DNA of 64,000 nucleotides from Escherichia coli (GCF_003334355.1 NZ_QOWP01000013.1); one strand, 5' to 3'. Positions 60,782 to 64,000 are shown, numbered from the stretch's first letter. Made by a program: numbers and translations. Notes: generated by a model not told the origin, from the letters alone.

Positions 60782-61759
<978 letters not shown>

Positions 61760-61953
61760 TTATCGTTATGATCTACAAAAGCCACCAGCATAACAAATCC
61801 GTGGTCGGTGGCAAAAAAAGCAGATTTCGCTTATTAAAACTGCATATTGATTGAAGTTTGAATAAACGCGCGATTTTTTAAAAAAGTTTGTTGACCTCAG
61901 GTCATGATTTCCCTAAATTAGCGCCCGTTCCAGCAAGACAGGAACGACAATTT

Positions 61954-62041
61954 GGTGAGGTGTCCGAGTGGCTGAAGGAGCACGCCTGGAAAGTGTGTAT
62001 ACGGCAACGTATCGGGGGTTCGAATCCCCCCCTCACCGCCA
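61954..62041 (+). tRNA. serX: tRNA-Ser (long variable arm, anticodon GGA)
   Basis: 88-nt sequence GGTGAGGTGTCCGAGTGGCTGAAGGAGCACGCCTGGAAAGTGTGTATACGGCAACGTATCGGGGGTTCGAATCCCCCCCTCACCGCCA with 7-bp acceptor stem, T-arm GGGGG-TTCGAATC-CCCCC and encoded CCA. Confidence 0.95.
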
Positions 62042-62465
62042 TATTTAAAAAAAAGCCCGTACGAAAGTACGGGCTTTTTTTTCGTATATTGCACACACCG
62101 GGGGGGATGAGAAGCCCCGACCGGGGGTCGACAACTGGCGACAGCCAGTTGGACAGACCGTGAACGCAGTGAGCGGGCTGCCCGCAGGGCGAGCGAAGCG
62201 AGTCAATCCCCCCCTCACCGCCATATTTAAAGAAGAGCTCGTACGAAAGTACGGGCTTTTTTTTCGTATATTGCACACACCGGGGGGATGAGAAGCCCCG
62301 ACCGGGGTTCGACAACTGGCGACAGCCAGTTGGACAGACCGTGAACGCAGTGAGCGGGCTGCCCGCAGGGCGAGCGAAGCGAGTCAATCCCCCCCTCACC
62401 GCCATATTTAAAGAAGAGCTCGTACGAAAGTACGGGCTTTTTTTTCGTATATTGCACACACCGGG
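62023..62465 (+). repeat. Tandem direct repeat (~181-182 bp period, about 2.4 copies), each copy beginning with the last 19 nt of tRNA-Ser
   Basis: aatccccccctcaccgcca occurs at 62023, 62205 and 62386; each is followed by a near-identical terminator hairpin and structured spacer; copies differ by a few substitutions and a 1-nt G-run length change. Confidence 0.9.
62047..62082 (+). terminator. Symmetric rho-independent terminator after serX
   Basis: aaaaaaaa-gcccgtac-gaaa-gtacgggc-tttttttt perfect hairpin with A/T runs on both sides. Confidence 0.85.
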
Positions 62466-62596
62466 TGCCCCCGCCCACGTCTGTTAGGGCGAGGGGAAAT
62501 CGTGCACATCAACTGTCTGGTTACTCAGTCAACAATCAAAATGCGCAAGAGAGTACAGAACATATATGTATTATCTGGTCACTTCCTATCACTTCC

Positions 62597-63583
62597 TCAC
62601 TTATTAAAATGCCCCCAACGGAAATACATGTCACATGCCATCATAAAATCGTTATGCCAGAGGAATCGACAATAGAAAAAATAGTAAATTAAGCACGGTA
62701 CATAGCAGAGTAAAAAATAGGCTTCAAACCAAATCCGCCATTCCACAAGCGTTGCCAATACCGACACCAGCGTAATCCACATCACTTCAATAACCAGCAA
62801 TATGAATAACCGAAGCCAAAGCGGCTTGGCAAAAAAGGTCGACAACGCATTTTCACTGGAGAAAAACAGATCGATTTCCTGCAAAAAAAGCCTGCCCAGA
62901 AAAGCGTACCGCTTGGAGAAGCGCAGAAAAAACAGATTAATCGCCAACACTACGCCACAAAGAATGAGCAATGCAATTATCGATTTAAACGTTAACCACT
63001 GCCCCTCTGTCACAAAAGAATCACTGTTACGCAACGGGCTGATAGTAAGCAGGTTAACAACCGTTGAGATGCACACCGAAAGCAGCACATAGCGAGTCAG
63101 ACTTTTATATTTTACTTTTTTCGCTACTGAAATAGCGACCTGCTTGACATAACTGGTGCGGATCATCCGAAACAGCAGAAAGATGACCAACGGCCCAAGT
63201 AACGAAATCAGGAACAGCGCATATAACGAGGGTAGAAGCTGGTATAGCCCCCAACTCATTGCACTCAACATGATTAACGACAGAAATCCTGCCACCAGAG
63301 GTTGTGTAAGAAATAATTCTATTTTGTGGTTCTGCTTTTTCTTAAACCACGAAAAATCGATATTCTTCGTGACGCATTTATAAGCCCAGTACGCCTTGAG
63401 ATCAAAAATAAAATTATACAGCACCAGAGCCAGAATCCCACTAACTACACCAATATCCTCTGATGGAAAAGTAAACCCTGCATTCTTCTAATAAAAGCCT
63501 ATCAGAATAAGTCCAATAGCATAAATGTATATCAGATTTCGTTTATCCTGAAAGCGAATAAAAGTTAAATAATCAGGAATCAT
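62597..63583 (-). pseudogene. ycdU: ycdU-like polytopic inner-membrane protein ORF, 329 codons, interrupted by an in-frame TAG at codon 32
   Basis: ATG at 63583 and stop at 62597 span 987 nt in one frame; the only interruption is TAG at 63488-63490; downstream 275-codon ORF (track 62597..63424) is in the same frame. Confidence 0.6.
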
Positions 63584-63923
63584 TTGAATACCTTTGCATC
63601 ACTAAATGCTTTACGACAATGCATAACTCGTTGCTGATCCACGCCAGCAAAATCATTTAACATATTCCCCAAATAGGGCTTATTACTTATTTCAAGGAAA
63701 GCTACCGGGGTTGGCATATTCAGAAATGTATCGAGAGATTCAGTCCATTTCACCGTATGAGTTAAGTGTAATGAGAGATTTTCTTTGATAATTGACGGAG
63801 CGACCTCGCTTTTTGCTGTTACGTTCATCAGAACCTGATGCTCTGGCGAAGCGATATCCAGTCCGGCAAGATAATCGCGCATTGCCTGAACGCCGTCTTC
63901 CATCAAACGCGTGTGCCAGGCAC
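63580..63923 (-). pseudogene. ymdE: C-terminal fragment of a FabD-like acyltransferase, 5' end truncated by the IS element
   Basis: Translated frame aligns with the C-terminal third of FabD in this window (e.g. VKWTESL vs VQWTKSV); frame runs up to the IS3 inverted repeat; stop TGA overlaps the ycdU ATG (ATGA). Confidence 0.6.
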
Positions 63924-64000
63924 TGATCTTACCCAGCAATAGTGGACACGCGGCTAAGTGAGTAAACTCTCAGTCAGAGGTGACTCACATGACAAAAACA
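63924..64000 (+). mobile_element. insE: Left end of an IS3-family insertion sequence (terminal inverted repeat and first 4 codons of orfA), continues beyond the window
   Basis: Begins TGATCTTACCCAGCAATAGTGGACACGCGGCTAAGTGAG, which I recognise as the IS3 left inverted repeat, followed by ATGACAAAAACA (MTKT) as in the IS3 orfA start. Confidence 0.7.

Follow-up and report, generated by a model that had tools for sequence, protein, structure and literature searches.

The island OI-48/SpLE1 integrates at the tRNA gene serX by means of 14-bp direct repeats (TGGCGGTGAGGGGG) and a P4-family integrase, and its excision has been documented (PMC3064760). A second island of the O157:H7 lineage, OI-47, measures 31,727 bp and spans z1528-z1556 (PMC8565820). 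Goldstone et al. (2016) described pgaABCD-ycdT-insEF-ymdE-ycdU as an apparent genome island between phoH and ghrA, in which ymdE is foreshortened by IS3, remarked that attrition is lacking, and suggested a retained function (PMC4951805). Tandem units that close with a tRNA 3' end form the RtT family, whose function is still described as unknown (bioRxiv 10.1101/2024.07.17.603846); when we searched the literature for RtT in combination with serX, no paper on an array at serX came up. The locus analysed here is the K-12-type allele of this known hypervariable site, an IS3-truncated stump of OI-47 beside an RtT array.

The DNA examined, referred to as the window, is an Escherichia coli stretch of 64,000 nucleotides. 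The nearest complete genome is that of strain E41, which we used for comparison over 61700-64000 and which differs from the window there at one base (63489, T in the window and C in E41). By the E41 annotation, the first 61.7 kb run ptsG-fab-rne-flg-murJ-mdoGH-csg-ycdXYZ-ghrA, in agreement with a first-pass annotation that had described them as housekeeping, flagellar and curli genes. That annotation had read the last 2 kb as a decayed islet, possibly the residue of an integration event at a tRNA gene, and all the irregular features it listed were found again: reiterated tRNA ends, a gene broken by a nonsense codon, a truncated gene and an IS end. The single tRNA detected by ARAGORN in the entire window is serX, and the features from its upstream side to the window end are as follows.

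61891-61919, + strand: promoter-like site TTGACC-17-TAAATT, just 5' of serX (by consensus scan alone)
61954-62041, + strand: serX, tRNA-Ser(GGA) (ARAGORN; Rfam tRNA, 53.8 bits)
62023-62465, + strand: RtT-type tandem array, 181-bp units, 2.4 copies, 98% identity (TRF, exact 19-mers)
62047-62082, + strand: intrinsic terminator hairpin A8-GCCCGTAC-GAAA-GTACGGGC-T8, immediately 3' of the tRNA (RNA fold)
62086-62223, + strand: RtT unit 1 (Rfam RF00391, 43.2 bits, E = 1.7e-6)
62268-62404, + strand: RtT unit 2 (Rfam RF00391, 46.3 bits)
62466-62596, no strand: spacer from the array to the ycdU stop codon, the serX-side border of island-derived DNA (locus comparison)
62597-63583, - strand: ycdU, membrane protein gene, 328-329 codons (translation)
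63580-63923, - strand: ymdE', fragment of a FabD-like ACP S-malonyltransferase gene, residues 201-313 of 313, 113 codons (FabD alignment)
63924-64000, + strand: left end of IS3, IS3D in K-12 (inverted-repeat match)

The position of the TTGACC-17-TAAATT site is compatible with a putative serX promoter. The last 19 nt of serX (AATCCCCCCCTCACCGCCA) occur in three exact copies, at 62023, 62205 and 62386, while the chance expectation was 0 in 100 shuffles. Within them, the last 14 nt of the gene (62028-62041) are the att core of the OI-48/SRL-type integrase. Each RtT unit repeats this 14-bp core, which P4-type island integrases use. The whole repeating unit is made up of the tRNA's last 19 nt, a terminator and a structured body. 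The terminator hairpin next to the tRNA recurs at 62229-62264 and 62410-62445; these + strand hairpins were missed by the consensus scan and are clear on folding (-23.6 and -20.8 kcal/mol; z = -6.4 and -5.6). For the body, unit 1 is predicted to fold into a closing stem with three arms (z = -3.4). Against the RF00391 gathering score of 45, unit 2 passes and unit 1 lies slightly under, and PGAP annotates an 'RtT sRNA' at unit 2 in strain E41. With the tRNA's own copy counted, the 14-bp tRNA-end core occurs 1 to 8 times per strain and 3 times here, and the copy number of the units probably shifts through unequal recombination.

RtT units follow serX in most of the sampled genera (roughly 20), among them Escherichia, Citrobacter, Salmonella, Enterobacter, Klebsiella, Leclercia and Kluyvera, in 0.5 to 4 copies, and they are present also where the next gene is phoH. 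We aligned 51 units from ~35 species. Their consensus fold consists of a closing stem and arms, with the NCCA tail left free; 97.3% of the cells in the alignment are paired, and double (compensatory) changes occur at 16 of the 34 pairs, a count that came to 4.9 +/- 1.4 in shuffles (16 was reached in 0 of 500) and to 3-7 with slid partners. The array therefore shows both tandem units ending in the 3' end of the upstream tRNA and the conserved secondary structure that characterize RF00391. Given this family-wide occurrence and the covariation, the array is an old, selected, structure-conserved feature of the tRNA-Ser(GGA) locus in Enterobacteriaceae and not a residue of integration.

A close likeness is with tyrT-tyrV-rttR of K-12, which likewise holds a tandem array, of 178-bp units in 3.1 copies, each closing with the last 19 nt of tRNA-Tyr. 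The bodies of the two kinds of unit have the motifs GATGAGAAGC...GGTTCGA...GGGCGA in common, and in both arrays the closing helix uses the T-stem/acceptor 3' strand of the tRNA and covaries with the tRNA: the partner of the tRNA-derived 3' strand is a G-rich 5' strand, GGGGAAGGAU pairing with AUCCUUCCCC in the Tyr array and GGGGGGGAU with AUCCCCCCC in the Ser array. They differ in that the tyrT unit has no evident terminator, whereas in the serX unit a strong intrinsic terminator comes right after each CCA. With a predicted terminator at that place, caution is due before the serX units are regarded as transcribed RNA, or as a stable RNA that, as in the RtT family, is processed out of a tRNA operon transcript.

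Beyond the array, the window matches one end of a much larger block. In O157:H7 strain Z910, a block of ~33 kb that abuts dgcT has ycdU and a full 313-aa FabD-like gene at its opposite end. This block contains a 16-gene lipid/polyketide-like cluster, with a LolA-like protein, a MacB-type ABC exporter, three ketosynthase domains, an ACP and FabZ-, SDR- and AcpS-type genes, and further a two-partner-secretion adhesin, a fimbrial operon, a winged-helix (wHTH) regulator and an EAL protein, followed by dgcT; it matches OI-47. When compared with the serX-side end of OI-47 of EHEC O157:H7, ycdU and the 344-bp ymdE' fragment of the window show 98.5-98.7% identity, which rises to 100% over the 120 bp adjoining IS3 (positions 1643-1762 of the O157 locus L005). 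The 31,741 bp missing from the window come close to the published length of the island. What is left is its last 1.3 kb of coding DNA; the cluster and the adhesin, fimbrial and regulator genes are gone. The surviving ymdE' starts at residue 201 and lacks GHSVGE, the catalytic motif found at residues 95-100 in the full-length protein; judged from its sequence, it is the predicted catalytically dead C-terminal third of the FabD-like gene.

YcdU and three neighbouring hypothetical proteins matched no NCBIfam family, and Pfam has no domain on record for YcdU homologues, which are restricted to Enterobacterales. In Mixta and Klebsiella oxytoca, the homologues close the same cluster at unrelated chromosomal sites; the cluster is thus a mobile unit, of which ycdU and ymdE' are the tail. 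On the other side, the spacer at 62466-62596 is confined to E. coli loci that bear ycdU (K-12, E41, O157:H7 and Ecol_224) and was not found in LF82, in other ycdU-negative strains or in 80 outgroup loci. The stretch 62466-63923 has 41.9% G+C, compared with 50.8 +/- 3.8% in 1-kb windows of the remainder, and just 3 of 122 1-kb windows are at or below 42%. The atypical composition that the first-pass annotation proposed to look for is there in overall G+C; the GC3 of ycdU is 0.48, which is not atypical, so part of the shift is due to a hydrophobic, AT-rich membrane protein. Low G+C was observed in dgcT and pga as well, in agreement with Goldstone et al. (PMC4951805).

We surveyed 5,426 complete E. 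coli genomes for the states of this site. ycdU is present in 2,663 of them (49%), and ymdE' adjoins IS3 in about 2,195, comprising a shorter allele A and a longer allele B (727 genomes). An intact FabD-like gene with its next gene was found in 390 genomes, and in 1,398 serX is joined to dgcT, as in LF82. In yet another state, pga is missing, and serX with eight tRNA-end core copies (counting its own) is followed by DUF2726 and phoH. K-12 MG1655 has the same order as the window, serX-ycdU-ymdE'-IS3D-dgcT (b1032, b1029, b1028, b1026/27 and b1025), with the same left and right IS3 junctions and the same ymdE' fragment, ymdE being annotated as a pseudogene; it differs in having 3.4 RtT units instead of 2.4 and in lacking the nonsense codon in ycdU that is private to the window. 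We take K-12, O157:H7 and LF82 to belong to phylogroups A, E and B2, respectively. The outgroups were scanned with GhrA, one genome per species, giving 80 loci. The ghrA-serX order is conserved in all 76 loci whose DNA reaches the site, and phoH-efeB lie beyond in about half, but neither ycdU nor the FabD-like gene nor any other OI-47 marker was found within 10 kb of ghrA-serX. The adjacency of serX, ycdU and ymdE, which if universal in the genus would have marked ancestral core sequence, is thus not universal: in other Escherichia species and in other genera, the place at serX is taken by phoH or by different cargo.

These states bear on the idea that ycdU and OI-47 are ancestral E. coli core and that the LF82-type absence is a secondary deletion. 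The LF82 junction, with its truncated RtT unit and its different dgcT 3' end, did look like a scar at first. This reading as a deletion scar was rejected when the divergent Escherichia lineage L011 was found to have the same breakpoint: L011 carries pga-dgcT, with a DgcT 77% identical, and the nucleotide at which its dgcT joins the truncated RtT unit is the one found in LF82. The DgcT C-terminus of L011 (...KDDD*) is also of the LF82 type (...KDDE*), as against ...NFCESP* in K-12, O157 and the window. The breakpoint and C-terminal type common to L011 and LF82 make the serX-dgcT junction the unoccupied state, ancestral to the arrival of the island. Since, in addition, E. albertii, E. whittamii and the other Escherichia species sampled have no ycdU near serX, and Klebsiella and Mixta carry the cluster at unrelated loci, an ancestral core origin has very little probability. 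An insertion by an integrase at the serX 3' end, with the tRNA ends as attL/attR remnants, is likewise very improbable and is largely refuted, even though serX is a proven attachment site (PMC3064760), a CP4-like island directly follows it in strain A4, and in Z910 a 74-kb island lies between serX and ycdU, with an integrase and the 14-bp repeat at its far end. The Z910 island is of the OI-48/SpLE1 type and separate from OI-47, and the integrase next to ycdU is its own. Like the serX islands of the OI-48/SpLE1 and SRL-PAI type, the islet lies 3' of serX (it starts 425 bp after the gene, past the RtT array), varies between strains and is lower in G+C; it differs from them in having no integrase and no bounding att repeats, and in borders that lie outside the 14-bp core. 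Compared with the unoccupied allele, these borders fall inside the RtT body and inside dgcT. Even the intact O157 block has the 14-bp core at its serX side only, with no second copy at the dgcT border, no further 19-mer copy within 3 mismatches, and no tyrosine or serine recombinase or other integrase between ycdU and dgcT. As the first-pass annotation had stated, no integrase is visible in the window, and none was found in the 12 kb past it in E41. The repeats themselves form a tandem of complete 181-bp units with 98% identity, which match the Rfam RtT family and recur with compensatory base changes in genera where phoH is the neighbour, and the analogous 178-bp array at tyrT has no island beside it.

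The truncation itself is instead explained by IS3. The left inverted repeat of the element begins at 63924 and the element continues to the window end; thousands of records contain IS3 copies that match these 77 nt at 100% identity. The full copy, present in E41 and K-12, is 1,258 bp long, has the same junctions and reaches to 10 bp past the stop codon of dgcT, with dgcT, pgaABCD, phoH and efeB beyond it. The flanking triplets, CAC and AAA, do not match, so there is no target duplication. When placed on the O157 locus L005, the IS3 flanks fall at position 1762 (left) and position 33504 (right), so that IS3 replaces 31,741 bp in allele A, the allele of the window and K-12. In Ecol_224, which carries allele B, the right junction and the IS3 orientation are identical and the left junction is at position 1947, with 31,556 bp deleted. 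The two alleles therefore have left junctions 185 bp apart and one common right junction, and such nested endpoints at one fixed IS end, together with the absence of a target duplication, are the classical signature of IS-mediated adjacent deletion; it was probably by this route that the island was reduced. The presumed parent, an intact island with IS3 at its dgcT side, was found in 0 of the 5,426 genomes, so that the order of insertion and then deletion is one we infer. Had the deletion come about by homologous recombination, with one IS3 copy lying in the FabD-like gene and a second beside dgcT, a single IS3 without a target duplication would remain as well, and E. coli genomes do hold several copies (the IS3 end matches at a median of 3 places). 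This alternative is nevertheless unlikely, because it needs two independent insertions in the same orientation, 185 bp apart in one gene, and neither parental insertion was seen in any of the 5,426 genomes.

Taken together, the observed structures, junctions, population frequencies and outgroup states very probably reflect two layers that differ in age, a serX/RtT locus and, beside it, an IS3-truncated stump of an OI-47-type island. The first layer (61954-62465) would be serX proper, that is, the tRNA gene, its terminator and the RtT-type tandem array, and the second (62466-63923) the serX-proximal stump of the accessory island. In part of E. coli, the island would have come in with the RtT array on one side and dgcT on the other, replacing ~110 bp, including the last dgcT codons. 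IS3 would then have inserted 10 bp 3' of the dgcT stop codon, and its left end would have removed the neighbouring part of the island in a single step or in two, presumably by a transposition-type mechanism, so that ycdU and the C-terminal third of the FabD-like gene survived and the lipid/polyketide-like pathway was lost. The last step, in this strain, would be a single TGG-to-TAG change that knocked out ycdU. Of the earlier view of the islet as a remnant, the part that stands is that it is an accessory stump of a larger piece of DNA; the tRNA-directed integration that was proposed to have brought it there is not supported for this block.

The nonsense codon is codon 32 of ycdU (TAG, 63488-63490), which is TGG in E41. 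None of the 2,595 genomes that carry the surrounding 61-mer has the TAG allele, and elsewhere in the population ycdU is annotated as an intact ORF. The TAG is a private, recent single-base change or a sequencing error, and ycdU is decaying in the window's strain only. A comparison of alleles A and B gave a dN/dS of ~0.14, calculated from just 9 differences in a set of four alleles, too few to tell constraint from recency; in the truncated strains, ycdU may be constrained rather than decaying. This value agrees with the missing attrition reported by Goldstone et al. (PMC4951805).

The essentials of this locus were already annotated or published: the K-12 ymdE pseudogene and IS3D, the PGAP RtT call, and the catalogued islands OI-47 and OI-48, as well as the accessory nature of pga-dgcT-ymdE-ycdU. 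The present analysis adds two nested IS3 deletion alleles with one common junction, outgroup evidence for serX-dgcT as the unoccupied state, and the identification of the repeated tRNA ends as a conserved structured element and not att debris. We consider it a slim possibility that the RtT array, with its cloverleaf-like modules, serves as a landing pad or buffer in several copies and thereby shapes the gain and loss of islands at serX, or that it acts as a tRNA-mimic RNA with a role of its own. That repeated tRNA 3' ends can be a conserved structured element calls for caution in automated island-callers, which take such ends for scars of integration.

The tRNA-Ser(GGA) gene serX is followed by tandem RtT units, each carrying the last 19 nt of the tRNA, and the two sequences vary together. 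When the T-stem of the tRNA carries a species-specific variant (CCCCGCC, CCCTCCC, or CCCTCTC), the identical variant is found in every RtT copy behind that tRNA, and the 5' strand of the RtT has a change matching the T-stem variant (units of loci L013, L012, L066, L056, and L062, in our alignment of 51 serX-linked units from about 35 species). This sequence pattern implies that the tRNA and its array evolve in concert.

In a handful of E. coli strains, the 14-bp tRNA-end core downstream of serX is present in anything from 1 to 8 copies, a spread that suggests frequent unequal recombination at the array. The comparison covered the following loci.

L009 12329-13614: strain LD22-1
L007: K-12
L003: Ecol_224
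The window

In LD22-1, pga-dgcT is also gone, and a DUF2726 gene adjoins phoH.

Each full serX RtT unit also contains an 18-codon ORF (MRSPDRGSTTGDSQLDRP).

Window 62107-62163, + strand: 18-codon ORF
Window 62288-62344, + strand: 18-codon ORF

Its start is the conserved GATGAGAAGC motif, at which tpr (MRSFDQGST...) of the tyrT units also begins. Some of the aligned species have GTG, GCG, or ATA in place of the ATG, which makes this ORF a probable by-product of the RNA motif.

Two full tRNA-Ser(GGA) copies, spaced 2 to 5 kb apart and often each with RtT units of its own, occur in many genera (Enterobacter, Klebsiella, Leclercia, Lelliottia, Kluyvera, and Trabulsiella).

L033, L036, L048, L050, L051, L055, L060, L066, L070, L085-L087, and others, ghrA-upstream side: duplicated tRNA-Ser(GGA)
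L036 6595-9771: Enterobacter hormaechei pair, with isochorismatase-like, pirin-like, and LysR-type genes between the copies

Arrival of the OI-47 block, the accessory island next to serX, altered the last ~10 to 13 codons of the diguanylate cyclase DgcT, so that E. coli has two C-terminal forms of the protein, linked to island history: ...RDVVNFCESP* in E41 versus ...KEAEILINRKDDE* in LF82.

L001 15493-15526 (E41) versus L002 15447-15489 (LF82), outside the window: dgcT 3' end
L001 17345-18042 (E41), outside the window: IS1A copy between dgcT and pgaA

No IS1A is present at the same spot in LF82, Ecol_224, or K-12, and the E41 copy is a further sign of IS activity in this interval. Positions 1-241, at the window's left end, belong to fhuE by homology to E41 (L094), in which this gene is annotated as frameshifted.

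In the intact island, YcdU is the last member of a conserved orphan cluster.

L005 436-15229: cluster in O157:H7
L090-L093: cluster in Mixta and K. oxytoca

It encodes AcpS, an SDR, FabZ, an ACP, an aminomethyltransferase-family protein, a double-KS protein, a KS, an ABC/MacB-type exporter, a LolA-like PF17131 protein, a FabD-like protein, and YcdU. This AcpS-to-YcdU cluster has no known product; it resembles a pathway for an exported lipid or polyketide and seems to pass from one member of the Enterobacterales to another.
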